DNA from: a virus
Taxonomy: Duplodnaviria > Caudoviricetes
Length of the DNA: 64,000 nt
IMG/VR virus record: IMGVR_UViG_3300036971_000130
Strand: one strand, 5' to 3'
In this document: positions 12,916-39,404 of the stretch, in pieces
How positions within the stretch are numbered: the first letter of the stretch is position 1
Layout: each line of letters begins with the position of its first letter
The notes under the pieces: model-generated
The model's input: the letters and a program-made list of their open reading frames with translations, nothing else
Database searches by the model: none
Told to the model about the DNA's origin: nothing
Program-made: the position numbers and the translations under genes

Positions 12916-13005
12916 GTTCACCGTCAGCCAGCAACCGCCGGTTTGACATCACCTCGGTGACCGACTAGTGTCACCGCCAACACCCACCAGAGAGACCCGC
13001 CTCAA

Positions 13006-13128
13006 ATGTTCACCATCTTCGCCGCCGAGACCATGGAAGGATCGCCCATCACGGGCATCACCTCCCATGTCTGTGCGTCGAAGCCGGTGAGCCGAGACTG
13101 GAATCAGCCGGAAAGGGTGGCGAAGTAG
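13006..13128 (+). CDS. Putative attenuator leader peptide, 40 aa, uses 18 amino acids (no Leu/Tyr)
   Basis: MFTIFAAETMEGSPITGITSHVCASKPVSRDWNQPERVAK; last codons overlap an antiterminator strand. Confidence 0.7.
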   Translation: MFTIFAAETMEGSPITGITSHVCASKPVSRDWNQPERVAK

Positions 13129-13159
13129 CAGAATCCGACCACAAGTCGATCTGATACCG

Positions 13160-13194
13160 AAGCCACTCCTTCCGGGGAGTGGCTTTCTGGTTTT
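13160..13194 (+). terminator. Intrinsic terminator (attenuator) upstream of tRNA array
   Basis: AAGCCACTCCT-TCCG-GGGAGTGGCTT then TCTGGTTTT; left arm can instead pair with 13108-13121. Confidence 0.8.
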
Positions 13195-13464: not shown

Positions 13465-13535
13465 GGGGGTATGTTCCAATGGTAGGATGACGGTCTCCAA
13501 AACCGACAGTCCGGGTTCGATTCCTGGTACCCCTG
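13465..13535 (+). tRNA. tRNA-Trp(CCA)
   Basis: Cloverleaf, loop CTCCAAA. Confidence 0.9.
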
Positions 13536-13712
13536 CAAAGGCGTGAGAATACGGGTGTCGAGGCCCGTCCGACTTCCCCAAGCTGTCGGTCATCTAAGGA
13601 AGATACACGTCACTATTCCTCTCTCGGTTGGCCGTCAACCTGATCGAGTAACGTGGAAGTCGTCGTAGGCGACAAGGCTCGTTCCGTGCCGAACGGAGCA
13701 GTTGACAGCCAT

Positions 13713-13786
<74 letters not shown>

Positions 13787-13788
13787 CT

Positions 13789-13865
13789 GGCGGGGTAGAG
13801 CAGTTTGGTAGCTCGACAGCCTCATAAGCTGTAGGTCACGGGATCGAAGCCCGTCCCCGCACCCA
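13789..13865 (+). tRNA. tRNA-Met(CAT), initiator-like
   Basis: 1:72 mismatch and fMet-type D arm, but no 3GC anticodon pairs; T loop ATCGAAG. Confidence 0.8.
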
Positions 13866-14178
13866 TCTCGTCATCGCCGGATCGGCAAAATCCGGGTCTC
13901 GGAAAACCGGGGTATGCTGCCAGCCTCACAGGCTGGTTAGCTCTCGGCCAGTACGAGGCAGATGACACAACCACAGCAACTCACTGCGTCCTTGCCAGGT
14001 GAGGTGGGTCGCTGTGGAAGTTCTCTGTCAGCCGGGACGGCAATCCCGGTGCTTGGAAGGGGACCCTGGTCGGCGCTTCGGCGTATCAGAAGGGGTCCCT
14101 GGTCCTGGCACGATAGGCAACCGAGCGAAGGAGGCTCCGCACTTGCCGGTGCGGAGCCGATCTCCCTCGGAAGTTCTT

Positions 14179-14251
14179 GGGGTCGTAGCTCAGTTGGTAG
14201 AGCACCTGCCTTGCAAGCAGGATGTCAGGGGTTCGATTCCCCTCGGCTCCA
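14179..14251 (+). tRNA. tRNA-Ala(TGC)
   Basis: loop CTTGCAA, G3:U70. Confidence 0.93.
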
Positions 14252-14533
14252 CAGGGACCGTGATGGTCCAAACAGAACAACCCGTCATCTCTTGCGTAGG
14301 GGTAAGTTGGCACTTCCTCAAAGCCACCGCTATCGGGCGGCAATGCTGGGGTCGGACCCAGCCCGGCGGCTGAAACCGTCGGTCGGCTAAATCGGACGTG
14401 GGAGAAGTCGTTTCGTCAGGGAACGACTACTGTCGAGCGTGAACCCAGGGCGATGTCCTGGGAGGTGTAGGAACGGGAATGGCTGACCGGAGGGTCGTAG
14501 ATGCCAAGCTACGGCCACTGGAAGGCCCCTCAT

Positions 14534-14611
14534 GGTGTTCGTAGCTCAGTTGGCTAGAGCGCAGCGTTGTGGTCGCTGAGGTCGCGGGTTCGAACCCCGT
14601 CGTTCACCCCA
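14534..14611 (+). tRNA. tRNA-His(GTG)
   Basis: G-1, loop TTGTGGT, CCA. Confidence 0.88.
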
Positions 14612-14748
14612 ATCGTCAGGTCGGAAGACCTTGGACGTAGAACATCCTGCATCGAAAGTGATCGAGCAGGTTGCTTCCTGACCGCCGACAGGGAAGCGTA
14701 ATGCCGTGGACAAGGGAGCTAGCCCCAACTCCACAAAGTCGGCTCCAT

Positions 14749-14821
14749 GCCCGGATAGCTCAGTTGGCAGAGCGTCCGTCTGAAAAGCGGAAGGTCACCG
14801 GATCGACTCCGGTTCCGGGCA
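14749..14821 (+). tRNA. tRNA-Phe(GAA)
   Basis: loop CTGAAAA. Confidence 0.92.
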
Positions 14822-14954
14822 CGCAAACCGGCCGCAAGCCGGTGGAGGTCGGAGGCATCCGACACAACGGGTTCGCTGACACCCCGTAGTCACGGTCGAC
14901 CGTGAAGAACTGGTCGGCGGGTAGGTATACCCGTCGATACGGAGTCAGTGCCAT

Positions 14955-15030
14955 GCGGTTGTAGCTCAGTCTGGTTAGAGCGTCTCGTTGCCAAAGAAGG
15001 TCGAGGGTTCGAATCCCTCCTGCCGCTCCA
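14955..15030 (+). tRNA. tRNA-Gly(GCC), anticodon stem defective
   Basis: TCTCG-TTGCCAA-AGA: 3' strand about 2 nt short. Confidence 0.7.
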
Positions 15031-15223
15031 TGACCCCCGCAAGGGAGCAGCGTCGGGTTGATCTCCGACAGGTGAAGGACCGTCGTAGTCCTTCGTGAGA
15101 CGGTGTCGAAACCGTCGACCATCCGTGAACGTGACGGGAAGGTGAAGTGGCCGTCTTGCACCGGTCCGGCTTCCGTAAGGGGGTCGAGATGAAGTGAAGC
15201 ATCGTCACCGATACGACACACAT

Positions 15224-15296
15224 GGGGGTGTAGCTCAGTTGGTAGAGCGCCTGGCTCTTAACCAGGATGTCGTGGGTTCGATCCCCTCCGCCCCTA
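15224..15296 (+). tRNA. tRNA-Lys(CTT)
   Basis: loop CTCTTAA. Confidence 0.92.
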
Positions 15297-15333
15297 CCGC
15301 TCTTGTGGACAGAGCCGAAACGTCCACCTTCCT

Positions 15334-15406
15334 TCCCAGGTAGCTCAACTGGTAGAGCATCCGGCTGTTAACCGGAGGGTTGCAGGTTCGAACCCTGCCC
15401 TGGGAG
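15334..15406 (+). tRNA. tRNA-Asn(GTT)
   Basis: loop CTGTTAA. Confidence 0.93.
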
Positions 15407-15557
15407 CTTGCAGTGATCTCCTTCACGACGGTGTTCCGCCATCGAAGTGAAGTCCGGTGAGCGACGACGTGAGAAACCGTTGCGATCCAACAAGGAACGT
15501 AGGTTCCTGGTATGCGGAGACAGGATGTCTCGATCCGGCCAGATCGAACGACCTGTA

Positions 15558-15635
15558 GTGTCTGTAGCTCAGTTCGGTCAGAGCGCCTGTCGTCGAGACA
15601 GGAGGTCGCTGGTTCGATTCCAGTCAGGTCCACCA
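15558..15635 (+). tRNA. Atypical tRNA, anticodon TCG (Arg?), G33, weak acceptor stem
   Basis: CCTGT-CGTCGAG-ACAGG; D and T arms normal; ACCA end. Confidence 0.6.
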
Positions 15636-15636
15636 T

Positions 15637-15710
15637 GCCGGTATAGCTCAGTTGGCTAGAGCGTCCCGCTCATAACGGGGAGGCCACTGGTTCGAGTCCA
15701 GTTACCGGTA
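15637..15710 (+). tRNA. tRNA-CAT (elongator Met or Ile2)
   Basis: loop CTCATAA. Confidence 0.88.
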
Positions 15711-15741
15711 CTGGTCCGCCGCAGACCTACTGCGACAACAA

Positions 15742-15818
15742 CGGGACGTGGCTCAGCTTGGTAGAGCGGGCGCTTCGGGGGCGTCAGGTCGTGGGTTCAA
15801 ATCCCGCCGTCCCGACCA
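15742..15818 (+). tRNA. tRNA-Pro(CGG)
   Basis: loop TTCGGGG. Confidence 0.9.
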
Positions 15819-15866
15819 AAGGTCAGTCGCAGACCTTGTGCCCATTCGGGCCAACTGCGACAACAA

Positions 15867-15941
15867 CGGGACGTAGCTCAGTTTGGCTAGAGCGGGCGCT
15901 TTGGGAGCGTCAGGCCGTCGGTTCGAGTCCGGCCGTCCCGA
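15867..15941 (+). tRNA. tRNA-Pro(TGG)
   Basis: loop TTTGGGA. Confidence 0.92.
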
Positions 15942-15977
15942 CAAGGTCAGCACGAACCTCGATCGTGCAAGGAACAA

Positions 15978-16051
15978 CCCTGGTTAGCTCAGAGGTAGAG
16001 CGCCGCCATGTCAGGCGGAGGTCAGTGTATCGAAAGCACTACTGGGGGCCA
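15978..16051 (+). tRNA. Atypical tRNA-Asp(GTC)-like, 6-nt anticodon loop
   Basis: CCGCC-ATGTCA-GGCGG; T loop ATCGAAA; GCCA end. Confidence 0.6.
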
Positions 16052-16052
16052 T

Positions 16053-16127
16053 GCACGTATAGCTCAGCGGCAGAGCGGCTCCCTTACAAGGAGTTGGTCG
16101 GGGGTTCGAGTCCCTCTGCGTGTACCA
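16053..16127 (+). tRNA. tRNA-Val(TAC)
   Basis: loop CTTACAA. Confidence 0.92.
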
Positions 16128-16226
16128 AAGTCAGCGGACAGGCTTCGGTATCCGCCATCCCCGGTGATGTCAAAATCCGGCGCTTCGTGGGAAGCGACAG
16201 CGTCCAGAAGGTCGCACCCACACTGA

Positions 16227-16300
16227 CCGGATGTAGCTCAATTGGAGAGAGTGCCTGACTACGAATCAGGAGGTTGGGGGTTCGAGTCCCTCCGTCCGGG
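16227..16300 (+). tRNA. tRNA-Arg(ACG)
   Basis: loop CTACGAA. Confidence 0.9.
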
Positions 16301-16467
16301 CTAGGGGGACCAGCGGGTCGCTACCGTTGGGCGCTCCTGAACCGACATGAATCGACGACTAGCTACCGTCAGCAACTCACCCCGCATGAAGGTGAGCTTC
16401 GGTGTGAGACCCGATGTCGGTACCATCTCCCGTCGAATGACGGCCCCGAGAGTGGCACTCTCAACAC

Positions 16468-16543
16468 GCCGCTTTAGCTCAGTTGGTAGAGCGCACCCAT
16501 GGTAAGGGTGAGGTGACCGGTTCGATCCCGGTAGGCGGCTCCA
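16468..16543 (+). tRNA. tRNA-Thr(GGT)
   Basis: loop ATGGTAA. Confidence 0.9.
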
Positions 16544-16544
16544 T

Positions 16545-16617
16545 TTCGGGATAGTTCAGTTGGTAGAACGCCTGGCTCTGAACCAGGAGGTCGGAGGTTC
16601 GAACCCTTCTCCCGAAG
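16545..16617 (+). tRNA. tRNA-Gln(CTG)
   Basis: loop CTCTGAA. Confidence 0.92.
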
Positions 16618-16674
16618 CAACGCTCGGCTTGTCCGGGCAGAACACCACCTTCTTGCTCGACGGGAAGGTCTCCA

Positions 16675-16751
16675 CGGGACATGGCGCAGCTTGGTAGCGC
16701 ACCGCTCTGGGGGAGCGGGGGTCGTCGGTTCAAATCCGGCTGTCCCGACCA
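16675..16751 (+). tRNA. tRNA-Pro(GGG)
   Basis: loop CTGGGGG. Confidence 0.9.
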
Positions 16752-16843
16752 AGAGGTCTGAAGGGCGATCGTGGGCACCCGTCAACGGTCGATACCACCA
16801 CCTCTGATCCAGCCGAAGGCCGAAGATAGGTTGGGTCGACCAT

Positions 16844-16919
16844 CACAGCGTAGCCAAGGTGGTCAAGGCAACCGTCTGCAAAACGGGAGATAGGGGTTCA
16901 ACTCCCCTCGCTGTGTCCA
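16844..16919 (+). tRNA. tRNA-Cys(GCA)
   Basis: loop CTGCAAA, U73. Confidence 0.9.
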
Positions 16920-16972
16920 AGGATGTCGAAGTTGGGCATCGTCTGCAATGCCACCCATGATGGGTGTATCAA

Positions 16973-17051
16973 GTCCTCGTAGCTCAGTCTGGTCCAGAGC
17001 GCCGCCCTGTCAAGGCGGAGGTCGCCGGTTCAAATCCGGTCGGGGACGCCA
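16973..17051 (+). tRNA. tRNA-Asp(GTC)
   Basis: loop CTGTCAA; internal promoter at 16933-16961. Confidence 0.93.
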
Positions 17052-17097
17052 TCCACATCTGGTGGTCGCTTGACGAGAGCGTATCTCGTCCCAACAT

Positions 17098-17173
17098 GCC
17101 CCGTTGGTCTAGTCAGGTTCAGGACGTTGGACTCTCAATCCAAAGGTCACGGGTTCAAATCCCGTACGGGGTA
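17098..17173 (+). tRNA. tRNA-Glu(CTC)
   Basis: loop CTCTCAA. Confidence 0.92.
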
Positions 17174-17207
17174 CTCAACGCCCGGCGAGAGCGCATCTTG
17201 CCAACAG

Positions 17208-17280
17208 GCCCCGGTCGTCTAGCGGCCTAGGACGCTGGCCTTTCAAGCCGGTAGCACGGGTTCGAATCCCGTTCGGGGTG
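17208..17280 (+). tRNA. tRNA-Glu(TTC)
   Basis: loop CTTTCAA. Confidence 0.92.
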
Positions 17281-17283
17281 CTA

Positions 17284-17361
17284 CGAGAAGTTCTGGTGAA
17301 GCAACTGGTGTTGCGGCCTCTCCGAGAGAGGTGCAGGCGGGTTCGATTCCCGTCACCTCGA
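17284..17361 (+). ncRNA. tRNA-like element with broken acceptor stem
   Basis: GCGGG-TTCGATT-CCCGT T arm, D-like and anticodon-like hairpins; only 4 contiguous acceptor pairs. Confidence 0.5.
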
Positions 17362-17512
17362 ACATCGTCAAGGCACGGCACGAGCCATTCCGATCGGATG
17401 GGGAGGGTCGTCGAGTAGGGCGTGAAGGCGATGGTCCACGACTGACCGCAGACCGTACATCTGCAACCTCCACGCACCCTCCTGCTCCGTTCCAGGCAGC
17501 CATGGAACCCTT

Positions 17513-17589
17513 GCGGATGTAGCTCAGTTGGTTAGAGCGTCTGGTTCCCAACCAGAAGGTCGAGGATTCGAGTTCCTCCATCCGCTCCA
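17513..17589 (+). tRNA. tRNA-Gly(CCC)
   Basis: loop TTCCCAA. Confidence 0.92.
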
Positions 17590-17591
17590 AT

Positions 17592-17682
17592 GGAAGGTAG
17601 GTCAGATATTGGTTTGCTGCGCCAGCCTCGAAAACTGGTTGGGTGAAAGTCCATGAGGGTTCGATTCCCTTGCCTTCCGCCA
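17592..17682 (+). tRNA. tRNA-Ser(CGA)
   Basis: long variable arm, loop CTCGAAA, GCCA. Confidence 0.88.
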
Positions 17683-17696
17683 TCTCAAACACCCTT

Positions 17697-17787
17697 GGAG
17701 GGTAGGCAACTGTTGGTTCGTTGCAACGGTCTGGAAAGCCGTGGGGTCTTCGGGCTCCCAAGGGTTCGATTCCCTTACCCTCCGCCA
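17697..17787 (+). tRNA. tRNA-Ser(GGA)
   Basis: loop CTGGAAA. Confidence 0.9.
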
Positions 17788-17795
17788 GACTTCTT

Positions 17796-17886
17796 GGAGA
17801 GTAGGCGTACTACTGGTTTGTCGCGCTCGGTTGCTACCCGAGTTGGGTGAAAGTCCATGAGGGTTCGATTCCCTTGCTCTCCGCCA
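17796..17886 (+). tRNA. tRNA-Ser(GCT)
   Basis: loop TTGCTAC. Confidence 0.88.
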
Positions 17887-17896
17887 TCGCACCCTT

Positions 17897-17986
17897 GGAG
17901 GGTAGGCAGATATTGGCGAGTTGCTGCGGCAGTCTTGAAAACTGTTTGGGTGAAAGCCCATGAGGGTTCGATTCCCTTGCCCTCCG
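17897..17986 (+). tRNA. tRNA-Ser(TGA)
   Basis: loop CTTGAAA. Confidence 0.9.
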
Positions 17987-18011
17987 CTCGCTTGGTGACT
18001 AGGTTGAGGCC

Positions 18012-18356: not shown

Positions 18357-18401
18357 ATGCTGAACGCCAAATCGCCCTCACGGGCGACCTCCTGCGTCTG
18401 A
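18357..18401 (+). CDS. Putative 14-aa leader peptide (AAA and CGG codons)
   Basis: GAAAGGA SD, MLNAKSPSRATSCV, directly before tRNA-Lys(TTT)/Arg(CCG). Confidence 0.5.
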   Translation: MLNAKSPSRATSCV

Positions 18402-19643: not shown

Positions 19644-20000
<357 letters not shown>

Positions 20001-20044
20001 TTCGACCTAGGACACAGGTCATCTCACCACCCATGATGGGTGAC

Positions 20045-20359: not shown

Positions 20360-20960
20360 GGTTCGTAAGATAGAGCGATCCGATCAGCTTCTTGCGGGAA
20401 GCTGTTAGGACGGCGGACCAGGCCGCAACCTGGTTGGGTGCCCAGCAATGGGGTCCGCCGCCGGTCAGCTTGATCCCCTTCGGGGTAGGGTTGGCGAGCA
20501 CGAACGGAGATACCTTCGACGATTCGTTCGTAGTACCAGTCGAGGGTCGGAGCGGTAAGCTCCGGCAGTCGGGTGTCATGGGCACGTAACGCCTTCGGCA
20601 CCCGACCGGAACACCCAAGTCGTCGCAGCGACTCAAAACAGTGCTTAGGCTGCGAGCGTTCGCTGAACAGCGAGGTGCACTGACCGATCGGATTGCAGTC
20701 CGAGAGGCGGTAGAACAGAGAGACTGCAATCTCTCCGTGATGCCGGTTCACCTGCGTGGTGAGCGAAGGGGTCCAGTCCGAATCCAAGGTCTGGGTCTAG
20801 TGACTTATCGGAGCAGTCCAAGTACATGGGCTGTGTGTGAAATCCCCCAGGGCGACCCCTGGGGGACGAAGCGAGATGGCTACATCACGAACCTAGACGG
20901 CAGTCGAAGTTCGAGGTGGGAGCCACAAACCGGGGGAGGACCCATGTCCTCCCCCGGTAC
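20360..20960 (+). ncRNA. Large structured ncRNA candidate (ROOL/GOLLD size class)
   Basis: Own promoter TGGACA-N17-CATAAT (20330-58); many nested helices; no credible ORF; closing hairpin 20929-58. Confidence 0.65.
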
Positions 20961-25646: not shown

Positions 25647-25685
25647 CTCTTGGACGTGTCGTTGTCGACCATCCATGATGGTGAC

Positions 25686-28964: not shown

Positions 28965-29564
28965 ATGGACCTCACCGGCTTCGTCAACGTCAACGACCTG
29001 ATCTCCGTCACCAAGTCCACCGGTGGATGCGGAGCCAAGCCTCACGGTCACATCTTCGACTCACGGATGAGCGATGCCGATTTGGCGGCTCACACGGACG
29101 AGGATGGCGTCCTGACCTTCGCCTGCATGGTACCGGTCGACGGAGATCCCATCGTCTTCGATGTCGCCAACGAGGTCCGTCGGATCAGCGGCAACTCGGG
29201 GACGTACACATCTCGGGTCGTCGGTCACTTCGGTTCGGAGTACCAGATCATCCTGGCTCAGTTCGGCGGGGTCGACTTCCGACCGGTCATCTTCGAGGAT
29301 GTCGTTCTGGCGCAGATGGGGTACGACCAGGGGATTCGGAGGGGCCTTGCTCTGACCCGGAAGCCGATGACGAAGAAGGAGATCGAGGAACGGACCGAGA
29401 ACGGCCGGACCGTCTTCTACTTCTCGTCCGACCCGGAGCCGCTCGGCACCCTGACGATGCTCTGCTGGGAACTCGTCAGGGGAGAGCCTATGCATCTCCA
29501 CGTCGTCCCTGTCGGAGTGCTCAACGAGCAGATCGTGTACCGGGCCTCCTGCGAGATCCGGTGA
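28965..29564 (+). CDS. Hypothetical protein
   Basis: Leaderless after class I promoter. Confidence 0.65.
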   Translation: MDLTGFVNVNDLISVTKSTGGCGAKPHGHIFDSRMSDADLAAHTDEDGVLTFACMVPVDGDPIVFDVANEVRRISGNSGTYTSRVVGHFGSEYQIILAQFGGVDFRPVIFEDVVLAQMGYDQGIRRGLALTRKPMTKKEIEERTENGRTVFYFSSDPEPLGTLTMLCWELVRGEPMHLHVVPVGVLNEQIVYRASCEIR

Positions 29565-30358
29565 TCCGCACCTGCGAGTGCTGCGGCGACACCCACGAGG
29601 ATGTGGGTGAGTTCGACGGCATGATGCTCTGCTTCCTCTGTCAGCCGTGCGTCGAGTGCGGTGAGACCGGAGGCGACTGCGATCCGTACGGTGTGGGCGG
29701 GGGCGGCATCTGCTACCGAGGCAGCCCCAGGACCACCGTGGACCGAATCCTCGCCGCCGCCGGAGTCGACCGGATCATCGCCACCTTGGTGTCCGAGAGT
29801 GTCGTTCGGCGCATGGGGAGAAACAACCTCCCGTACCACAACATCTGGCACATCATCGACGTGCTGAACGAGGCGCTTCGTCTCTTGCCGTTCGAGCCGG
29901 AAGCGAACCAGATCGCTGTTCTGCTCGCCGCCGCCTACCATGACGTTGTCTATGACATCGACCTTCGGCACGGGGCCAACGAAGAAGCGAGCGCCGTTGT
30001 GGCTGTGGCCGAGTTGTCGGCGCTGAACAGCGGTCTGGTGGCCGAGGTCGGTCGGTTGATCCGGCTGACCGATGACCACAACATCGACCCTGCCGATCGT
30101 TCGGGTGCGGTCCTCGTCGATGCCGACCTCGGCATCCTTGCCGCCGATCCGACGGTCTACGCCGACTACACCGTGCGAGTGCGAGGCGACTACCGGAAGT
30201 TCAGCGACGAACAGTGGAAGGCCGGACGACCGGTGGTGCTCAGGAAGTTCCTCGACAACCTGGGCAGCTACTTCCTCGCTGGCCCCACCGAGGATCGACT
30301 GTTCCGTCGAGCTTCGGCCAGACGGAACATCGACTTCGAGTTGGTCAACTTCGACTGA
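29561..30358 (+). CDS. HD-domain phosphohydrolase with N-terminal Cys cluster
   Basis: YHNIWHI, AAYHDVVYD, NEEASA, DADLGIL. Confidence 0.85.
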   Translation: MIRTCECCGDTHEDVGEFDGMMLCFLCQPCVECGETGGDCDPYGVGGGGICYRGSPRTTVDRILAAAGVDRIIATLVSESVVRRMGRNNLPYHNIWHIIDVLNEALRLLPFEPEANQIAVLLAAAYHDVVYDIDLRHGANEEASAVVAVAELSALNSGLVAEVGRLIRLTDDHNIDPADRSGAVLVDADLGILAADPTVYADYTVRVRGDYRKFSDEQWKAGRPVVLRKFLDNLGSYFLAGPTEDRLFRRASARRNIDFELVNFD

Positions 30359-30376
30359 CCCACCCATGATGGTCGC

Positions 30377-30685
30377 ATGCAGATCCAAGACATCATCTCC
30401 GCCACCGAAGCCCACGAGAGCGGTCCTCGTCCTCGCAACGTCATGGTCCACACCCCGATGACCCGAGAAGAACTGGAAGCTCGGGTCACCAACCGTTCGG
30501 ACCAGACCGAGACCGAGGTCCAGTTCGTCATCCTCATCGACCCGTTCGACTACGACAGCGAGTCGATGTGGGACCACCTCAGCGACCTGGCTGGCACGAT
30601 CGTGAGCGCCTGGCATCTGACCCCGATCGGGGTCTACCAGGAGAACGTCGTCTACCTCGTCGACTGTGTCGTCGACCTGGACTGA
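30377..30685 (+). CDS. Hypothetical protein
   Basis: Leaderless; resembles C-half of 28965. Confidence 0.6.
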   Translation: MQIQDIISATEAHESGPRPRNVMVHTPMTREELEARVTNRSDQTETEVQFVILIDPFDYDSESMWDHLSDLAGTIVSAWHLTPIGVYQENVVYLVDCVVDLD

Positions 30686-30725
30686 AAACCTGGTTGACCT
30701 GGTCTTTCTCGGGTATCATCCCCGC

Positions 30726-31283
30726 ATGGAACAGACCACGACCGTCATCCCTCTGGGCGTCTTCGACCCGGACAAGAGGACCGTCATCTACCTCGATGTC
30801 GATGGCGTCCTCAACTCTTTCCAGTCGCCGGAGGTGCTGAAGAAGCACTGGCCGGACTTCGAGGTCGTCTCCAAGGAGTCGCCGGAGAGGTTCGTGTCGA
30901 TCTCGATGGTCCTGTCCCGTCGACTCGGGACAGCGATCCGGGCGTACGCCGAGACGATCGGAGCCGAGATCGTCTGGGCGACCTCGCACGGTTCCTACGT
31001 CGACATGTTCGATCAGGAGTCGGGTATGACCTCCCACATGCGCTCGATCGAGTGCTACGGCGAGGAAGTCGAACCCGGTCTGATCTGGAAGATGGGACCG
31101 GTGTCCGAGGACTTCGATGACCGGAACGTCATCTGGGTGGACGATGAACTCACCGAGGAAGACGCCGTCTACCTCACCCGTCAAGGTATCAGCGGCTTCC
31201 TGGTCATCCCTGACCCGTTCAACGGGATCACGAACGGTGACCTTGAAACGCTTGACGTGGTCACGGTCACGCCCCATGATTGA
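30726..31283 (+). CDS. HAD phosphatase (Swiss-army-knife RNA-repair type)
   Basis: IYLDVDGVLN, IVWATS, IWVDDE. Confidence 0.8.
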   Translation: MEQTTTVIPLGVFDPDKRTVIYLDVDGVLNSFQSPEVLKKHWPDFEVVSKESPERFVSISMVLSRRLGTAIRAYAETIGAEIVWATSHGSYVDMFDQESGMTSHMRSIECYGEEVEPGLIWKMGPVSEDFDDRNVIWVDDELTEEDAVYLTRQGISGFLVIPDPFNGITNGDLETLDVVTVTPHD

Positions 31284-31364
31284 GGTCTGGCGGAACACCT
31301 GACCTGTCGTGCATCAACCGACAGGTTGGACATCCCCTACCTCCCGACCCATGATCTGAGCACT

Positions 31365-31985
31365 ATGACCATGCAACGAGTCGAGGCGCTGAAGCTCCCC
31401 GACGATCCCGACACCATCATCGAGAACCTCCTGAAGAAGCTCGGCATCGCCATGCTCCCCCAGAAGGTGAACGCTCTCGAACTCCTGGACCTGCTCGGCG
31501 GTTCGGTCAAGCTGACCTCCGACCCAGCCCCGTACGACATCCACGTCTCAGCCCCCGGCAAGTTCGTCGCCCAGGTGGAGAAGAAGCGCACGGCCATGTG
31601 GGTGACCGCTCAGAACCGAGCGTGGATCGCTCGTGCCATCGTTCGGTACCTGCTCGGCTACGGCTGGGTCGGCGGCACCGGTGACCGGTACCTCCTGACC
31701 GTCGAGTCCGATGCAGCGGAGCGGCAGATCAACGCTCTCGTCGCCGCTCTCCTGATCCCGAACGACCTGTTTAAGATCGCCCACAAGAAGCTGAACCCGA
31801 AGGACGAGAAGGGCAACTACCTCGACGACCTCTGGGACCCCATCATCTTCGGCCCTGACGGCGAGTCCGATCGCTTCGACAAGCAGATCCGACGTGAGAG
31901 CAACGTGAAGGAGTTCGCCAAGATGTTCGATGTCCCGGCGAAGTACGTCGAGGCTCGCCTCTTGCTCAACGGGTTGCGCTTCTAG
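31365..31985 (+). CDS. Degenerate ImmA/IrrE-like protein
   Basis: AERQINALVAALLIP, FAKMFDV..VEARL; no HExxH. Confidence 0.55.
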   Translation: MTMQRVEALKLPDDPDTIIENLLKKLGIAMLPQKVNALELLDLLGGSVKLTSDPAPYDIHVSAPGKFVAQVEKKRTAMWVTAQNRAWIARAIVRYLLGYGWVGGTGDRYLLTVESDAAERQINALVAALLIPNDLFKIAHKKLNPKDEKGNYLDDLWDPIIFGPDGESDRFDKQIRRESNVKEFAKMFDVPAKYVEARLLLNGLRF

Positions 31986-32017
31986 TCGTCGACCTGGTAG
32001 AACTGGCCTACCTTCTC

Positions 32018-32121
32018 GGGGAGGTTGGATACTGGCAAATCCAGCCTTGGCACCCAAACCAACGGTCAGCATGTGACATCGAAGTCGCTGCATGGGGGTT
32101 CGAGTCCCTCCCTCCCCGCCA
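32018..32121 (+). ncRNA. Atypical 104-nt tRNA-like RNA
   Basis: GGGGAGG/CCTCCCC-GCCA acceptor, canonical T arm, bulged anticodon arm with 8-nt loop CACCCAAA, long variable arm. Confidence 0.7.
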
Positions 32122-32203
32122 GACTCACGAAGACCCGGACCGATCGGTCCGGGTCTTCTCGTTCCAGTTGGACATCCGTTTGGGTCCCACCCATACTGAA
32201 GGC

Positions 32204-32455
32204 ATGTCCCGCACCCTCGCTCACGCACCCAAGCAGGTCCAGCGCCGTCGAGCCGATCGAACTGGTCAGATCACCGATCGGACCAAGCTCGTCGAACTCG
32301 ATGATGCCACCACGCCTGCATGGAACAAGGCGGAGCGGAAGGTGCGCTACAGCGCATTCAAGTGCGGAGCTATCGACGCTCGGAGCCGCAACCGGACCCG
32401 TCGCCAGAAGGACCGTCAGGACCACATCAACGGCAATCTCGGAGAATGGGCTTGA
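32204..32455 (+). CDS. Small basic protein
   Basis: Leaderless after TGGACA-N17-CATACT. Confidence 0.6.
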   Translation: MSRTLAHAPKQVQRRRADRTGQITDRTKLVELDDATTPAWNKAERKVRYSAFKCGAIDARSRNRTRRQKDRQDHINGNLGEWA

Positions 32456-32486
32456 CACCAGTTGTCAGACCTGTAGGATGGCCGAC

Positions 32487-32576
32487 ATGAACACCGCAGC
32501 CCGCACCCTATCGAAGACTGGACGCCTGACCGGCGTTCGACTTCTGTGCGTCCTGCCGGGCCGCTTGTATCGCTGA
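32487..32576 (+). CDS. Putative Leu/Tyr-sensing leader peptide, 29 aa
   Basis: Leaderless after TTGACA-N16-TAGGAT; MNTAARTLSKTGRLTGVRLLCVLPGRLYR; codons CTA, CTG, CTT, TTG, TAT. Confidence 0.7.
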   Translation: MNTAARTLSKTGRLTGVRLLCVLPGRLYR

Positions 32577-32668
32577 TCTCTGACGCTCTCGTCGGGATTC
32601 GACGATAGAGCGAACGGGCAGGACGACAGTCCACGTTGGACCGAGCAGAAGCTCGTCGACCAACTCAT

Positions 32669-32744
32669 GTCTGCGTAGCCCAATGGCAGAGGCAACGGTC
32701 TGAGGGGCCGTTCAGTGGAGGTTCGAGTCCTCTCGCAGACACCA
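32669..32744 (+). tRNA. tRNA-Leu(GAG), short variable loop
   Basis: loop CTGAGGG, ACCA. Confidence 0.88.
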
Positions 32745-32745
32745 A

Positions 32746-32821
32746 GCTCACGTAGCCCAACGGCAGAGGCAGCAGGTTCAGGACTTGTTCAGTGGAGGTT
32801 CGAATCCTCTCGTGAGCACCA
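32746..32821 (+). tRNA. tRNA-Leu(CAG), short variable loop
   Basis: loop TTCAGGA. Confidence 0.88.
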
Positions 32822-32854
32822 CACATAGGCCGAGGAAACCCGGTCGTAGATCAA

Positions 32855-32939
32855 GCTGATGTATCCAAGAGGCGAAGGGCGCTGGCTGTAAACCAGTTAC
32901 GAAGACACACCGGGGGTTCGACTCCCTCCATCAGCACCA
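32855..32939 (+). tRNA. tRNA-Tyr(GTA)
   Basis: loop CTGTAAA, extended variable region. Confidence 0.88.
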
Positions 32940-32973
32940 ACACATAGACCGAGAACACCCGGTCGCAGATCAT

Positions 32974-33059
32974 GCTTCGGTAACCAAGCGGACGAAGGTA
33001 GCTGGCTGTAAACCAGTGACGTAGACACATCGCAGGTTCGAATCATGCCCGGAGCACCA
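32974..33059 (+). tRNA. tRNA-Tyr(GTA)
   Basis: loop CTGTAAA. Confidence 0.85.
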
Positions 33060-33060
33060 A

Positions 33061-33138
33061 GCCTGTGTAGCCCAATCGGCAGAGGCACCGGATTCAAACC
33101 CCGGAAAGGTGTGGGTTCAAGTCCCACTACAGGCACCA
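33061..33138 (+). tRNA. tRNA-Leu(CAA)
   Basis: loop TTCAAAC. Confidence 0.85.
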
Positions 33139-33149
33139 CATCACATCTA

Positions 33150-33226
33150 GCTCACGTAGCCCAATCGGCAGAGGCGACGGTCTGAGAGGCCGTTCAGTGG
33201 AGGTTCGAGTCCTCTCGTGAGCACCA
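33150..33226 (+). tRNA. tRNA-Leu(GAG)
   Basis: loop CTGAGAG. Confidence 0.88.
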
Positions 33227-33227
33227 A

Positions 33228-33300
33228 GCCTGCGTAGCCCAATGGCAGAGGCACCGGTTTTAGGTACCGGCCAGTGAGGGTTCGACCCCCTCCGCAGGTA
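33228..33300 (+). tRNA. tRNA-Leu(TAG)
   Basis: loop TTTAGGT. Confidence 0.88.
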
Positions 33301-33320
33301 CTCCGACCCATGATGGGACA

Positions 33321-33851
33321 ATGGACATCGAACGCCGCCCGAGGGCGACAACCATCATCAAGAACTTCACCCTGCCGCCGCTGGCGATCGCCGTCATCGT
33401 GGTCGGCCTGTTCGGGTTCCTGTCCGGGTCGTTCTCGTCGGAGCGGCTCAAAGCAGTGAGCTACGGCAAGAACAACAACATCGTGGTCGAGTCGACGAAG
33501 GGCGACACGATGACCTTCACGTCCAACGGCGTTCGATGTGCTGCGAAGTTCAGCACCACGAGCGGGAGCTACGTCTTCCGTGACTCGAAGTGCGAGGATG
33601 GTTCGACGCCGAGCCTGAAGCCGTCCAAGGTCGAGTACGTGTTCAACTTCGCCTCGTTGGTCTTCGGTGGGGTGGTTGCGCTCATCGGGGTGGTGCTTCT
33701 GGCGCTGACCCTACCGAGCCCACTTCGTGAGACGGGGGCGATCATCGCTCTGCTCATCGTCTTCATCCTCATAACGATCGTTGCGGAGATCGGTGTCGGC
33801 ACGTCCATCAGGTACTACGAGAGCGGCGACATCATCACCACGAACGAGTGA
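33321..33851 (+). CDS. Three-TM membrane protein
   Basis: Hydrophobic segments; leaderless. Confidence 0.65.
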   Translation: MDIERRPRATTIIKNFTLPPLAIAVIVVGLFGFLSGSFSSERLKAVSYGKNNNIVVESTKGDTMTFTSNGVRCAAKFSTTSGSYVFRDSKCEDGSTPSLKPSKVEYVFNFASLVFGGVVALIGVVLLALTLPSPLRETGAIIALLIVFILITIVAEIGVGTSIRYYESGDIITTNE

Positions 33852-34199
33852 TCAGTCGGTGACGGCTTCTCGGAACACCCCGACGATGGCGACGAACAGC
33901 TTGTCCTTCAACTTCTGGTCCTCGGGAAGCTCGTCGTAGGGGACCAGGGACGGATGCGTTCTCGCTTCCTCGTCCTTGGTCGGTCCGTAGACCCACCCGT
34001 CAGCGATCCTCTGGTCCATCCAGAGTTCGTGGGAAGCCTCCGGGTCGAGTGGGCCTTGGACGCCAGCCATCGTGAGCAGGCGGTCTTCTTCGCCCGTCTC
34101 GTCCCATCCAGCGGACACACCGATTGTCTCGTCCTTCTGGGACATCTGGATCGCACGGTTGGCTTCGTGAAGGACTCTGGCTGCCTGGTCGATGTCCAT
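33852..34199 (-). CDS. RyR-domain protein
   Basis: HELWM..GWVYG..HPSLVPYDELPEDQKLKD. Confidence 0.85.
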   Translation of the reverse strand: MDIDQAARVLHEANRAIQMSQKDETIGVSAGWDETGEEDRLLTMAGVQGPLDPEASHELWMDQRIADGWVYGPTKDEEARTHPSLVPYDELPEDQKLKDKLFVAIVGVFREAVTD

Positions 34200-34281
34200 G
34201 AACGGAACCGTACCATCCTGGTTGGTCCAACCGTTGACAACGGGTGTAACATGAGTGCGACCACGTCAAAGGAATGACCAG

Positions 34282-35559
34282 ATGAAGATTCTCAACCGGG
34301 GCTTCGGCGCTGCCGCCATCACCGCCGCTGTTCTTCTCGGAACCGCCTGCCCGAGTTCTGCGGTCGATGCCGTACCGAAGGACCAGTGGCAGAAGAAGGA
34401 GACGCTGATCTCCGCCAACCTCTACAGCAAGCGCAACACCAACTTCGAGGCCGACCCGGTCGTGGCGATCTACGCCCGTCAGGAGGCGAAGCTGTGGGCC
34501 ACCACGCTCGCCAACAACACCCCGAAGGTGGAGCAGTCCAGGATCAACACCTGGCGCTCGGGCCTCGGGGCCAGCAACATCAAGATGAACGTCGTCAAGA
34601 TCGCCGCTGACCAGTCGCCGGCCGCTGTCCACGCAGCGAAGGCTTCTGCCGCCGGAACCTTCCGTGACAACGCCATGTGGTCCTCCGGTCGCCGGTTCGG
34701 CATCGGCGTCTACCCCCACAAGAACGGCGGCTGGATTCTCGTCGAACTGTTCGTGGACGGTGGACCGACCTCGTCGAACCGGAGGATCAGTCAGTTCCGC
34801 ACCGCTGATGGGTTCCTCGCCCAGAACTACACCGACTTCTACGTCAAGGACGGCAACTGGACGATGGGCCGGGCACAGCCTGGCGTGAAGAACTCCGATG
34901 GACGTGACTGGGGCAACATCACCGGATCCATCTCCGGCAACACCGGGCGTGGCTCGAACGACGGTGCTCCCTACGCCCTCTGGGCCGACATCATCCTCGC
35001 TGGTCAGTCCGCTGGTGCCCAGTCGGTCGTGACGAAGTGCGCCGTGGGCAACACGAAGGCGATCCTCGCCACCACCGGTACCGCACCGAACAAGGCTGCG
35101 TACAACGACATGGTGAACTCCTGCCGTTCGGTGGCCCAGACCGTCCAGAACTACTCGGGCACCAACGCCTACAAGACGAAGTACCCGGCCTCGATGACGA
35201 ACGCCCAGTTCGTCATCGCCGTCTACAAGACCGTGAATCAGAACCAGACGCCGTCGACCGCATGGGTCAACGCTTCGGTCGCCAAGCTGAACGCTGGCAA
35301 GACCCGTCAGGCGTTCATCTCCGAGTTCGTGGTCTCCGCTGACGCCAAGAACGGCGGTCAGGCTCTCGTCTCGATCCTGACCGCCACGATGCTCGATCGT
35401 CCGGCCACCGCCGCCGAGCGGTCCAACGTCGACGTTCGGTCCTTTGACAACAACGGCAAGTGGAACCTCGCAAGCTGGGGCTTCGCCAAGCCGGTTCTGA
35501 ACAAGGTGCTCACCTCGAACGAGTACGCCACTCGGGCGAGCAACCTCGGCCTCCGGTAA
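34282..35559 (+). CDS. Secreted protein with DUF4214-like C-terminus
   Basis: Signal peptide; NAQFVIAVYK, LDRPA, SNEY. Confidence 0.7.
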   Translation: MKILNRGFGAAAITAAVLLGTACPSSAVDAVPKDQWQKKETLISANLYSKRNTNFEADPVVAIYARQEAKLWATTLANNTPKVEQSRINTWRSGLGASNIKMNVVKIAADQSPAAVHAAKASAAGTFRDNAMWSSGRRFGIGVYPHKNGGWILVELFVDGGPTSSNRRISQFRTADGFLAQNYTDFYVKDGNWTMGRAQPGVKNSDGRDWGNITGSISGNTGRGSNDGAPYALWADIILAGQSAGAQSVVTKCAVGNTKAILATTGTAPNKAAYNDMVNSCRSVAQTVQNYSGTNAYKTKYPASMTNAQFVIAVYKTVNQNQTPSTAWVNASVAKLNAGKTRQAFISEFVVSADAKNGGQALVSILTATMLDRPATAAERSNVDVRSFDNNGKWNLASWGFAKPVLNKVLTSNEYATRASNLGLR

Positions 35560-36968: not shown

Positions 36969-37556
36969 TCAGACCGCCCGGTAACCACGGTAGGTGAGGC
37001 TGATCCGGGGACCGCACTTGAACGACGCCTTCGGGATGCGGTGGTAGTGCGTCTGCTGCATGCCGGGGAGCATGAACATGGCGGAGCCCGACCCGAGGCG
37101 GAAGCTCTCGATCAGCGGGCTGCCGATCCTCAGCATCCCGTCACGGTTGGCTTCGATCGAGGACACGAGGATGTCCCGCTCGGCACCGAAGGACACGGTG
37201 ACGACGGAACGCTCCGGGTCCATCTCGGGCGAATCGTCAGCGTGCCACCCGAGGGCGTTGCGCTCGTTCTCGTAGAGGTTGGCGAAGCAGACCTCGTATT
37301 CCTCACCTCGGACGCCAGAGAGCATGTCCCCGATCAAGGTGACGAGCGGGTGCGGGTCCTGCTGCTCGTAGGTGCGTGCTCGTTCGCCGGTGCCGTAGGT
37401 GTACGGGACCGGGACCTTGTTCGTGTACCACTCCCGACGAGCAGGGGTGACGCTCACCCACGGAAGCTCGTGGTACAGCGTCTCGAACGCCTGCTCGGCG
37501 TTCGGGTAGAAGTCGGGGACGTAGAGGACTGGGGCGGGTGGGTATTCGGTGCTCAT
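36969..37556 (-). CDS. AlkB-family 2OG-Fe(II) dioxygenase
   Basis: NLYE..LGWHADD, HRIPK, RISLTYR. Confidence 0.9.
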   Translation of the reverse strand: MSTEYPPAPVLYVPDFYPNAEQAFETLYHELPWVSVTPARREWYTNKVPVPYTYGTGERARTYEQQDPHPLVTLIGDMLSGVRGEEYEVCFANLYENERNALGWHADDSPEMDPERSVVTVSFGAERDILVSSIEANRDGMLRIGSPLIESFRLGSGSAMFMLPGMQQTHYHRIPKASFKCGPRISLTYRGYRAV

Positions 37557-37885
37557 GGGTTCTGGTTCTGGTTCTGGTTCAGGATTCGGTCGATGTCAGC
37601 CTGCAAGGCTTCTTCCCGATCGCTGCGACCCTGGGTCATGCGGGTGATGCGGATGGTGTGCTTCTCGAAGAAGGTGTCACGGGAGTGGATGCGGAGCTTC
37701 CACATGAACGCAGCGTCGAGGTAGAAGGACGGGTCGATGTTGCCTTCGCAACGCTCGCTGTCTCGAAGCCAGTCCATGAAGATGTCGAAGGTCTGCTCGT
37801 TCATCTCGAAGGTGGTTCTGATCAACTCGGTGAACTCGGCGTTCTCCGAGGCGAGGGGCTTCTGCGTCTTGCGGTTGCGGAACAT
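37553..37885 (-). CDS. Hypothetical protein
   Basis: GAGG SD, coupled to AlkB. Confidence 0.5.
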   Translation of the reverse strand: MFRNRKTQKPLASENAEFTELIRTTFEMNEQTFDIFMDWLRDSERCEGNIDPSFYLDAAFMWKLRIHSRDTFFEKHTIRITRMTQGRSDREEALQADIDRILNQNQNQNP

Positions 37886-38067
37886 CAGTTGACCTCGTGG
37901 TTGTTCAGGGCGGCGACGATGAAGTCGGCCCTGGCTTCCTTGGCGATCACGACGGGGTCCGTCAGATCGAGCGGTCCACGGTGGCGGTGGACGATGACGG
38001 CGAACTCGTCGTCGTCCTGGAGATCGTGATGATGGACTTGTTCGGGAGGGCAACTTCTCGATGTGCT

Positions 38068-38310
38068 TCACGAGAAGACCCCGGTCGGGATCGGCCACTT
38101 CAGGTTCCACCGGTCCGTGAAGGTCTTGGCCTGGTGATCGAACTTCCCGAAGTAGTCGGAGCCCGAGTAGACCATGTCCTTCTCGCCGGGAGCGCCGACG
38201 GCCGACGGGGTCTTCAGGAGGTACACGTACCCGTGGGGGTTCGGGCGGTTGCCGACGCTGCGGTCGACGTTGCCGAGGAACTCGTTGAGGGCTGCCTGGT
38301 CGATCTTCAT
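38068..38310 (-). CDS. Small hypothetical protein
   Basis: Leaderless after TGGACA-N17-CATGAT on minus strand. Confidence 0.6.
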   Translation of the reverse strand: MKIDQAALNEFLGNVDRSVGNRPNPHGYVYLLKTPSAVGAPGEKDMVYSGSDYFGKFDHQAKTFTDRWNLKWPIPTGVFS

Positions 38311-38705
38311 GGCACCATCATGGGTCGGTTCTCGTGGGCTGTCCAATCCTTCGTCCGAGATGCGACACGAAGGGACGGAGCGTGTCAGGACTCTGCTTCC
38401 GACCGATGAACCCGAACGACTGGACCGGTTCCCCGTCGAAGGAGATGGTTCCTCCGGTCTGGGAAGCCCACTTCACCTTGTCGAGCAACCTGACGACCTT
38501 CGACCACGCCTTCGTCCGGTAGAGCGATGCAGGTGTGCCATCGAAGGACAAGGAGAGCGTCCTCATCCGCCGGTCCATCGAGACCTCGAACCTGTCGGAC
38601 TTCCACCAGGAAGCCCCGACGTAGGGGGTCATCTCACGATCGAAGACCTTGTTGAGTTCGATCCGAAGTCTCGGAGCGTCGCTGTCGGGAACGACGAGCA
38701 TCATC

Positions 38706-39404
38706 GACGAGGACGATCGTGTCTGGTTGGTCCTGCACTCGGGTTCCCGTGGGCCGGGCAACCAGTTGGCTTCCGGCCACATCGCCAACGCCAAGCTCAT
38801 CGAGCGGCTCTACGCCGACGGCACCGAGGTCGACCCCGACCTCCGCTGGTTCGTGGAGAGCACGCCGGAGTTCGCTCACTACGTGGCCGACCTCCGTTGG
38901 GCTCAGGCGTTCGCCTGGGAGAACCGGGAGATCATGCTGGACAACGCTCTGGCATCGCTGTTCCGCTTCATCGGTCACGGTGAGGCTGACGAGCGGGTCT
39001 CCTGCCACCACAACTACGCCGAGTGCGAGAACCACGGTGGCCGTGACATGTGGATCACCCGCAAGGGTGCGATCCGTGTCGCAGAGGGCCAGCTTGGCAT
39101 CATCCCCGGCTCGATGGGCACGGAGACCTTCATCGTGCGTGGCCTCGGCAACCCCGAGTCCTACGAGTCGGCGTCGCATGGCGCTGGCCGTGTGCTCTCC
39201 CGCAACCAGGCTCGCAAGATCCTGACGGTGGAGTCGCTGCACGAGGCGATGGCGGGTCGTACGTGGCTCGACGGCAAGGCCGAGAAGCTGCTCGATGAGC
39301 ACCCGAAGGCGTACAAGGACATCCGGAAGGTCATCGCCCGCCAGGCGGACCTGGTGACCCCGGTCCACACGCTGAAGGCGGTGCTGAACTACAAGGGCGC
39401 TTGA
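38706..39404 (+). pseudogene. rtcB: RtcB RNA ligase, C-terminal half only
   Basis: HSGSRG, CHHNY, RKGA, IPGSMG, SHGAGR, AYKDI present; N-terminal DIGCG and GNHF motifs absent. Confidence 0.8.

Follow-up and report, generated by a model that had tools for sequence, protein, structure and literature searches.

The question raised by the locus described here is whether a short open reading frame (ORF) in front of a cluster of leucine (Leu) and tyrosine (Tyr) transfer RNA (tRNA) genes senses the supply of the very tRNAs that are encoded behind it. The locus lies in a stretch of 64,000 nucleotides (nt) from a virus of the Caudoviricetes (IMG/VR record IMGVR_UViG_3300036971_000130). This whole stretch, referred to below as the window, is part of a metagenomic contig of 233,542 base pairs (bp) with 62% G+C, and is best taken for a GC-rich mobile element or jumbo phage of actinobacterial type, with the locus as a tRNA operon that is complete in itself. 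The initial annotation had described the ORF, which starts at position 32487, as a leader peptide whose codons mirror the tRNA genes downstream. Ribosome-mediated attenuation is textbook knowledge for amino-acid biosynthesis, and no description of leader-peptide control of tRNA genes was found in the literature searched.

We suggest that the 32487 ORF is, on balance, probably a functional member of a class of codon-matched leader ORFs that control phage tRNA genes. It is read as such on the strength of two results: an attenuator at 13006, in front of the main tRNA array of the same window, and an excess of comparable ORFs before about 190 unrelated tRNA clusters. At the locus and beyond it, we observed the sequence anatomy of a leader, a modest excess of matching codons in its ORF, and the existence of such leader ORFs elsewhere.

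Leader of the Leu/Tyr tRNA cluster

The cluster consists of seven tRNA genes at 32669-33301, called by ARAGORN as Leu-GAG, Leu-CAG, Tyr-GTA, Tyr-GTA, Leu-CAA, Leu-GAG, and Leu-TAG, which are the anticodons named in the initial annotation (TAG, CAG, GAG twice, CAA, and GTA twice). It is preceded on the + strand, where all features of the leader lie, by a strong promoter of the sigma-70/SigA type at 32452-32479. This promoter is composed of TTGACA (32452-57), a 16-nt spacer, and TAGGAT (32474-79), has a 10/12 match, and is the best match within 31000-35000. Four + strand promoters of the window have a perfect TTGACA, and three of them directly precede tRNA clusters (12943, 25447, and 32452).

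The ATG at 32487 begins 7 nt past the -10 box, with C at -1 (32486) and A at +1 (32487), in a pyrimidine/purine pattern. It opens a leaderless-type ORF of 29 codons plus TGA (32487-32576, with the stop codon at 32574-76), and the 29-codon ORF described initially was confirmed, with a promoter at leaderless distance, as was every other sequence statement of the initial annotation. An AGGA is located 8 nt 5' of the ATG and could serve read-through transcripts. The ORF contains six Leu codons and one Tyr codon, namely, CTA (codon 8), CTG (codons 14, 20, and 23), CTT (codon 19), TTG (codon 27), and TAT (codon 28), and holds no TTA, CTC, or TAC. Its last 11 codons include five of these seven, which lie on the 5' strand of a long hairpin.

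In the minimum-energy fold, hairpin 1 lies inside ORF codons 9-20 (32513-32544) and is followed by the long hairpin, an irregular structure of 84 nt (32545-32628) that takes its 5' strand from codons 20-24, encloses the stop codon, and has its outer 3' strand at 32617-32628. Two small hairpins (32629-32655) and a 13-nt single-stranded 5' leader with U at -1 of the first tRNA complete the region. It had been noticed initially that the Leu-codon stretch can pair with sequence beyond the stop codon. This pairing was borne out as the outer stem of the 84-nt hairpin, in which 32544/5-32557 pairs with 32617-32629 through 4 bp, a bulged G, and 9 bp; codons 25-30 are also paired inside the hairpin. 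The whole 182-nt leader has a folding energy of -77.8 kcal/mol (z = -3.75 to -3.9). In constrained folds, a ribosome placed on any of codons 19-28 abolished the 84-nt hairpin.

This anatomy suggests the following mechanism. The promoter would start transcription at or next to A32487, so that the RNA would begin with AUG and the 29-codon ORF would be translated leaderless, serving as a ribosome-occupancy sensor and not as a protein gene. If a host tRNA nuclease, for instance, has made Leu- or Tyr-tRNA scarce, the ribosome may stall on codons 19-28 and hold the hairpin open; when decoding is fast, it would leave at the stop codon and the 84-nt hairpin would close. The state of the hairpin may then set how much of the seven-tRNA precursor is made or matured, with the closed form giving the lower output. 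For this output step, we tentatively consider factor-assisted or T-tract-independent termination or pausing, and, with the same reserve, 5' processing or stability of the pre-tRNA. A hairpin whose state has no effect on output at all seems clearly unlikely.

Codon-matched leader ORFs before other tRNA clusters

A sister leader stands in front of the main tRNA array of the window (12943-13194, + strand), with a TTGACA promoter at 12943, an ORF, and an antiterminator/terminator pair. Its 40-codon ORF (13006-13128) uses precisely the 18 amino acids that the main array serves, with Leu and Tyr as the only two missing, so the early remark that the two leaders complement each other proved correct; the probability of this set match is 2.7e-4 per window and 0.0017 per region. 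The codon usage of the 13006 ORF is gene-like, and the only + strand intrinsic terminator in 12.5-26 kilobases (kb) lies 3' of it. In constrained folds, the antiterminator (-33.6 kcal/mol) formed by default and with a ribosome stalled mid-ORF, and the terminator (-22 kcal/mol) formed only with a ribosome at the stop codon. Because this leader follows the logic of classical attenuators, the element very probably uses ribosome-mediated attenuation on its tRNA genes.

Loci from other DNA were fetched from IMG/VR and metagenomes (about 290-300 loci) through a D-arm motif shared by Leu tRNAs, a motif that is common in phages and also shared by the five Leu tRNAs of the cluster, and tRNAs were annotated in all of them. 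The 250 nt upstream of each small cluster, 190 non-redundant clusters in all, were tested for a short ORF in which the amino acids of that cluster are overrepresented. Such an ORF was found in 12 of the 190 at an empirical p <= 0.01, where 1.9 are expected, and in 26 at p <= 0.05 (9.5 expected). Peptide composition was also tested against the tRNA set by permuting cluster labels among GC-rich candidates whose start codon lies 6-7 nt past a -10 box. The fraction of matched codons was 0.385 in these candidates and 0.287 +/- 0.025 under permutation (z = 3.9), and none of 5000 permutations reached the observed value. The coverage of anticodons in 154 clusters gave Z = 2.4 (49 full coverages versus 36 expected); this test is confounded by real gene ends upstream, and we therefore relied on the enrichment and label-permutation tests. 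The initial idea of a leader ORF with codons matching the downstream tRNAs has thus gained strong independent support from the 13006 attenuator and from the class at other loci.

Individual members illustrate the match between peptide and cluster. The 13 codons of locus L277 (839-883, - strand), which precedes Tyr-Leu-Leu, include 5 Leu and 1 Tyr, and the ORF of L290 (7366-7431, - strand), in front of Tyr-Leu-Leu-Gln-Gln, contains 1 Tyr, 5 Leu, and 3 Gln (p = 0.015). Ser, Gln, or Leu occupies 15 of 17 codons in L257, which precedes Leu-Leu-Ser-Gln-Ser-Leu, and the ORF of L237 is rich in Asn, Arg, Glu, and Pro before Asn-Arg-Arg-Glu-Arg-Arg-Glu-Pro. L278 is rich in Ser, Leu, and Tyr before Ser-Tyr-Leu-Leu-Leu-Ser (p = 0.02), and in the AT-rich L271, which precedes four Leu tRNAs, Leu accounts for 7 of 21 codons.

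Conservation was seen in two sets of relatives. The homologous leaders of L233, L239, and L236 keep the promoter, start, stop, 19-codon length, TAT and Leu codons, and hairpin, and the remainder of the peptide diverges among them; such a pattern, with a fixed frame and fixed sensor codons in a diverged peptide, is characteristic of a regulatory ORF. Bixzunavirus has an unannotated leaderless-type ORF of 14-15 codons, in which 9-10 of 13 codons are Ser or Leu (14 codons and 9 of 13 in Bonray, L006:1096-1140; also L099, L093, and L303), between a ParB-like gene and tRNA-Ser(GCT) with three Leu tRNAs. This leader region is present in 207 phage records (Bonray and 206 others), and in phage Colt the frame and composition of the ORF are kept despite a 3-nt indel and many substitutions.

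Members of the class were defined by a promoter, a start codon 6-7 nt past its -10 box, and an ORF that is 13-33 codons long and stops fewer than 110 nt upstream of the first tRNA. The corresponding values of the 32487 leader are 7 nt, 29 codons, and 92 nt. Its 84-nt hairpin begins in the 3' part of the ORF and lies ahead of the first tRNA, in agreement with the definition of the class, which asks for a hairpin that begins in or just after that part and stands between the ORF and the first tRNA. In the enrichment pipeline applied to the 190 other loci, it gave an empirical p = 0.0155, comparable to L290 and L278, which places it within the enrichment that defines the class. The same spacing of -10 box, 7 nt, and start codon also occurs in L277, L266, L233, L239, L236, and L099. 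Nearly the same build is found in L192 (744-845, - strand), where TAGGATGG, 5 nt, and ATG, exactly as in the 32487 leader, open an ORF of 30 codons before Pro-Gln-Gln-Leu-Leu-Leu-Asn. The matching codons of L192 are in the C-terminal half, and a long hairpin extends from about codon 19 to beyond the stop codon without a T tract, as at 32487.

The class can be divided by what follows the hairpin. A clear T tract is present in L271, L139, L237, and L209, and interrupted T-rich tails 3' of the hairpin were seen in L278 and L290 (the tails of L278, L290, and L139 were read by eye). The simple terminator scan flagged L271 and L209 only, and the hairpins of L278, L290, and L139, which have nested stems or long loops, were left unflagged by the strict scan. 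The 32487 leader, L192, L233, L239, L277, L266, and Bixzunavirus form a subtype without a T tract.

These leader ORFs constitute an apparently undescribed class that precedes phage tRNA clusters. Their recurrence before the tRNA clusters of many unrelated phages suggests that phages sense a tRNA shortage through a stalled ribosome and make the missing tRNAs. A wider proposal, on which we find the evidence evenly poised, is that phages and mobile elements widely use leader ORFs as tRNA-specific shortage sensors, with codons tailored to the tRNA genes behind them, so that the stalled ribosome switches on the synthesis or maturation of exactly those tRNAs; host anticodon nucleases could bring about such a shortage. 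The window would then contain a split system, in which one sensor covers the 18 amino acids of the main array and the other covers Leu and Tyr for the satellite cluster, the latter sensor working without a canonical terminator.

Sensor or incidental ORF

Taken alone, the Leu/Tyr locus is suggestive, no more. Seven of 28 codons are Leu or Tyr, which is a modest excess: in stop-free 28-codon non-coding windows of the element, the probability of at least six Leu codons is 0.04 and that of at least one Tyr codon is 0.15, and the presence of all five codon classes has p = 0.002 per window. When any ORF of at least 15 codons was allowed in dinucleotide shuffles of the leader, the codon match had p = 0.019. 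The initial description of the codons as a mirror of the tRNAs is correct in that all five classes are present, but it was overstated, because CTC is absent, and the other 22 of the 29 codons are neither Leu nor Tyr. The match by itself reaches only p ~0.02. The annotation had also pointed to the lack of a TTA codon and of a TAA tRNA. Both statements are true, and ARAGORN found no Leu-TAA tRNA anywhere in the window, but they are trivial: TTA makes up 0.2% of the Leu codons of the element, so its absence from the ORF is uninformative.

The most serious alternative is that the 182-nt region is the usual kind of structured 5' leader on a polycistronic pre-tRNA, serving as a processing, stability, or spacer RNA, such as a substrate of ribonuclease (RNase) III or RNase E that RNase P cleaves off. 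In that case, the ORF would be incidental, perhaps pervasively translated because the RNA happens to start with AUG, and would regulate nothing. Several observations speak for this alternative and weigh against a sensor. The codon usage of the ORF, at the 59th percentile of non-coding frames and in the lowest 1% of real gene windows, is indistinguishable from that of non-coding frames, and its coding/non-coding likelihood ratio is 0.044; a regulatory ORF, however, need not resemble a gene in codon usage. The frame is open for 183 codons in any case, with the ORF as its tail, so that a stop-free ORF at this place is unremarkable in itself. The match at the level of the region, which was picked post hoc, is far from perfect, given the many other codons and the lack of CTC, which is the main Leu codon of the element (49.5% of Leu codons) and the Watson-Crick codon of the duplicated GAG tRNA. 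Strong structure is also common in the tRNA array of the element, where 3 of 16 spacers have z <= -3.3 and no matching ORF, and the structure of the leader alone therefore proves little. Finally, behind the promoter of the neighboring Arg(TCT)/Arg(CCT) pair, the leader is 9 nt long, and this pair needs no leader ORF.

The same alternative is favored by the lack of an evident switch. No intrinsic terminator is present at the 32487 leader: no hairpin with a T tract was found on the + strand within 31000-35000, in agreement with the initial annotation, and no run of T occurs in the tail 3' of the 84-nt hairpin. Constrained folds with six ribosome positions gave no mutually exclusive structures, as the long hairpin just opens or closes and no functional alternative helix is formed. 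Control through Rho had been considered initially, but no convincing Rho-loading site was detected at the leader, where a weak C-over-G bias at the 5' end (C/G ratio of 1.47) corresponds to about the 90th percentile. Three further points weigh against a sensor. The 84-nt hairpin ends 40 nt before the first tRNA, versus 0-11 nt in the other leaders without a T tract; no homologue of the leader was found among the fetched tRNA loci; and the p-values of the class statistics are optimistic, since some related loci were taken in. The sensor codons are also sparser in the 32487 ORF than in other members of the class.

However, an incidental ORF would require three coincidences, namely, an ATG at the predicted transcription start, the presence of all five codon classes, and the location of the sensor codons on a strand of the hairpin. 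It would also leave aside that the design recurs in unrelated contigs well above expectation, with L192 nearly identical, and that Leu and Tyr are the very residues missing from the sister ORF at 13006. We therefore regard an incidental ORF as rather unlikely and prefer the reading of the 32487 ORF as a sensor of the codon-matched class.

It is very improbable that the leader RNA or the basic 29-residue peptide has a function of its own unrelated to tRNA sensing, for instance, as a stable small RNA released by RNase P, a decoy for a host nuclease, or an arginine-rich RNA-binding peptide: the very stable fold, the 5 Arg and 1 Lys among the 29 residues, and the abundance of non-coding RNAs and of genes for RNA repair in the element (RNase P RNA, Pistol ribozyme, Ro60, RtcB, and a HAD RNA-repair domain) are consistent with such a role, but the leader has no Rfam match even at E <= 5, no paralogue in the window, and no homologue elsewhere, the peptide has the composition of out-of-frame GC-rich DNA, and the recurrent match between ORF composition and tRNA identity at other loci would be left unexplained.

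Two further candidates were rejected. In a tRNA-misfolding attenuator, the RNA of the ORF would pair with the acceptor strand of the first tRNA unless masked by a stalled ribosome. This model first looked attractive for Bixzunavirus, L266, L277, and L239, but the fraction of shuffled leaders that mispaired with the first tRNA in silico was 0.05 for Bonray, 0.17-0.38 for the others, and 0.80 at 32487; the model is not supported generally and was rejected at 32487. A third, mini-leader ORF at 18357 gave p = 0.14 under a loose rule and 0.008 under a strict rule and was too weak to count.

Relatives of the locus were also searched for in larger collections. Against phage and plasmid collections, queries with the DNA of the locus, with 25 kb of sequence, and with the two flanking proteins gave tRNA-level or unrelated matches only, and scans with four neighboring proteins detected no syntenic locus in IMG/VR. 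For the neighbors of 205 and 176 amino acids, the query itself was the sole match in a search of 5.8 billion proteins, and for the 83-amino-acid neighbor, an exhaustive HMMER search of 1.8 billion representative proteins gave low-complexity matches and no true homologue. The other contigs that carry the locus DNA are 100% identical, and none of the collections searched contained a relative of the element.

Known systems and setting in the element

In classical leader-peptide attenuators of the leu, his, trp, and pheA type, a promoter-proximal short ORF is enriched in the monitored codons and the position of the ribosome selects the RNA structure, which is the logic proposed here. The 13006 leader and those of L271, L139, L237, and L209 fit this scheme fully, with a hairpin followed by a T tract. 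The 32487 leader differs from it in that its sensor codons are scattered instead of forming a run, and in that it has neither a T-tract terminator nor an antiterminator pair. Classical attenuators control biosynthetic enzymes, whereas tRNA genes would be controlled here, so that the sensed quantity is the product itself. The proposal amounts to an application of ribosome-mediated attenuation to the tRNA genes of mobile elements.

The closest published design to the 32487 leader is the mycobacterial polycysteine leaderless ORF Ms5788A, in which a 90-nt ORF and a 97-nt untranslated region (UTR) form an exceptionally stable duplex that, in the published model, is prevented by stalled ribosomes (10.1101/834739). 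The two leaders share an actinobacterial setting, an ORF of 90 nt and of leaderless type, a 3' UTR of about 95 nt, and the lack of an intrinsic terminator. In both, a very stable duplex covers nearly the whole leader, and the 3' sensor codons pair with downstream leader sequence. However, the sensor of Ms5788A is a run of consecutive Cys codons, unlike that at 32487, and its duplex masks the Shine-Dalgarno sequence of the gene downstream, which gives a translational output; at 32487, tRNA genes follow and there is no ribosome-binding site.

Short upstream ORFs that report ribosome stalling, as proposed for 32487, are also known from toiL of E. coli and from mycobacterial whiB7. For toiL, the available part of the report describes no intrinsic terminator and gives premature Rho-dependent termination as the outcome (PMC12121999), and for the whiB7 leader ORF, the title of the paper ties the whiB7 response to alanine starvation (10.1101/2023.06.02.543512). 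Both control protein-coding genes, and the evidence for Rho loading at 32487 is weak. As far as the accessible portions of the literature state, tRNA clusters of phages and mobile elements replace host tRNAs that are lost to tRNA-targeting defenses (PMC10264068, PMC11555353, PMC5966550, PMC12803027, and PMC4758250), and the tRNA-Tyr of phage T5, which counters retron-Eco7, is given there as a case of counter-defense. These portions speak of promoters and copy number, not of a shortage-sensing leader ORF.

If the proposal is true, the feedback loop would be very short, with the ribosome testing the tRNA pool and the answer being more of that tRNA. It would explain how phage tRNA arrays could be held silent until a host defense depletes specific tRNAs, and it would link the identity of each cluster to the threats that the phage faces. 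The class should be easy to test, as it includes the well-studied cluster C mycobacteriophages (207 genomes), which infect M. smegmatis, and it would offer compact, programmable switches that respond to tRNA shortage. The variants without a T tract pose the question of how a leader hairpin could control a stable-RNA operon, and a Leu/Tyr sensor that works without a canonical terminator would imply a second output mechanism that has not yet been described.

The window contains 43 tRNA genes according to ARAGORN, 27 of which lie within 4.5 kb at 13465-17987. A tRNA array unit has been defined, in the part of the source available, as at least 20 tRNA genes at a density of at least 2 per kb (PMC4758250); the tRNA count and density of the window place it within this definition, with the Leu/Tyr cluster as a seven-gene satellite of 633 nt. 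Spacers at 13866-14178, 14253-14534, and 14823-14954 are structured relative to shuffles (z = -5.0, -3.4, and -3.4, respectively) and are candidate non-coding RNAs; the first of them, of 313 nt, has no ORF of at least 10 codons. The tRNA at 15978-16051 has a 6-nt anticodon loop, for which ARAGORN gave a 2-base anticodon in an Asp-like GUC context, and an atypical T arm. A type A bacterial RNase P RNA (181 bits, 19647-20001) and a Pistol ribozyme (59 bits, 20618-20680) are located inside the tRNA region.

Type I-C cas genes and Ro60 are also encoded in the window. Genes of the RNA-repair type are found on both sides of the Leu/Tyr cluster, at 29564-31283 and 36969-39404, and comprise those for an HD phosphohydrolase, the HAD domain of "Swiss Army Knife" RNA-repair proteins, a 2OG-Fe(II) oxygenase, RtcB, and a RyR-domain protein.

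An extended promoter, TTGGACA, N15, CCCAT(G/A)(A/C)T, is present in eight copies, at 12886, 20329, 25650, 28929, 31326, and 32168 and, on the - strand, at 38346 and 46907. In this family, an ATG stands exactly 6 nt past the -10 box at 25650, 28929, 32168, 38346, and 33309-33321 (the last with the -10 part only), which indicates that leaderless messenger RNAs are common in the element. The CATACT variant is common to both copies nearest the tRNA leaders. The copy at 32168-32197 (+ strand; TTGGACA, N15, CCCATACTG) belongs to a gene for a basic protein of 83 amino acids, and because no terminator lies between this promoter and the Leu/Tyr leader, its transcripts can read into the leader. The gene itself (32204-32455, + strand) is an orphan ORF that is called in public assemblies; no Pfam or PHROG family was found for its product, and the ORF ends in a stop codon that overlaps the tRNA promoter at the -35 box. 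Upstream of it, within 32018-32163, a tRNA-like RNA of 104 nt scored 30.7 bits against the Rfam tRNA model and is not among the ARAGORN calls. Its anticodon arm is oversized, its variable arm is long, and its 3' end is G73-CCA. Immediately 3' of it lies a hairpin whose tail is short and T-rich (TTCTCGTT); the terminator scan did not flag this hairpin.

The genes of the Leu/Tyr cluster are all on the + strand. The first two, tRNA-Leu(GAG) (32669-32744, 76 nt, with A73) and tRNA-Leu(CAG) (32746-32821, 76 nt), have a short variable region and an encoded CCA. They are followed by two tRNA-Tyr(GTA) genes: the first (32855-32939, 85 nt) has a long variable arm and an encoded CCA, and the second (32974-33059, 86 nt) is the second copy of a tandem spacer-plus-tRNA unit. 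Next come tRNA-Leu(CAA) (33061-33138, 78 nt), again with a short variable region and an encoded CCA, and a second tRNA-Leu(GAG) (33150-33226, 77 nt), which duplicates the first tRNA over 107 nt at 89% identity. The last, tRNA-Leu(TAG) (33228-33301, 74 nt), is the sole one of the seven without an encoded CCA, and at its 3' end it overlaps the -10-like CCCATGATG of the leaderless gene that follows, with an ATG at 33321. At 74-78 nt, the five Leu tRNAs of the cluster have no long variable arm, the defining feature of bacterial tRNA-Leu. Leu tRNAs of this short form occur widely in contigs of phages and metagenomes, frequently as tandem copies (272 clusters in the fetched loci), and Bixzunavirus has annotated examples.

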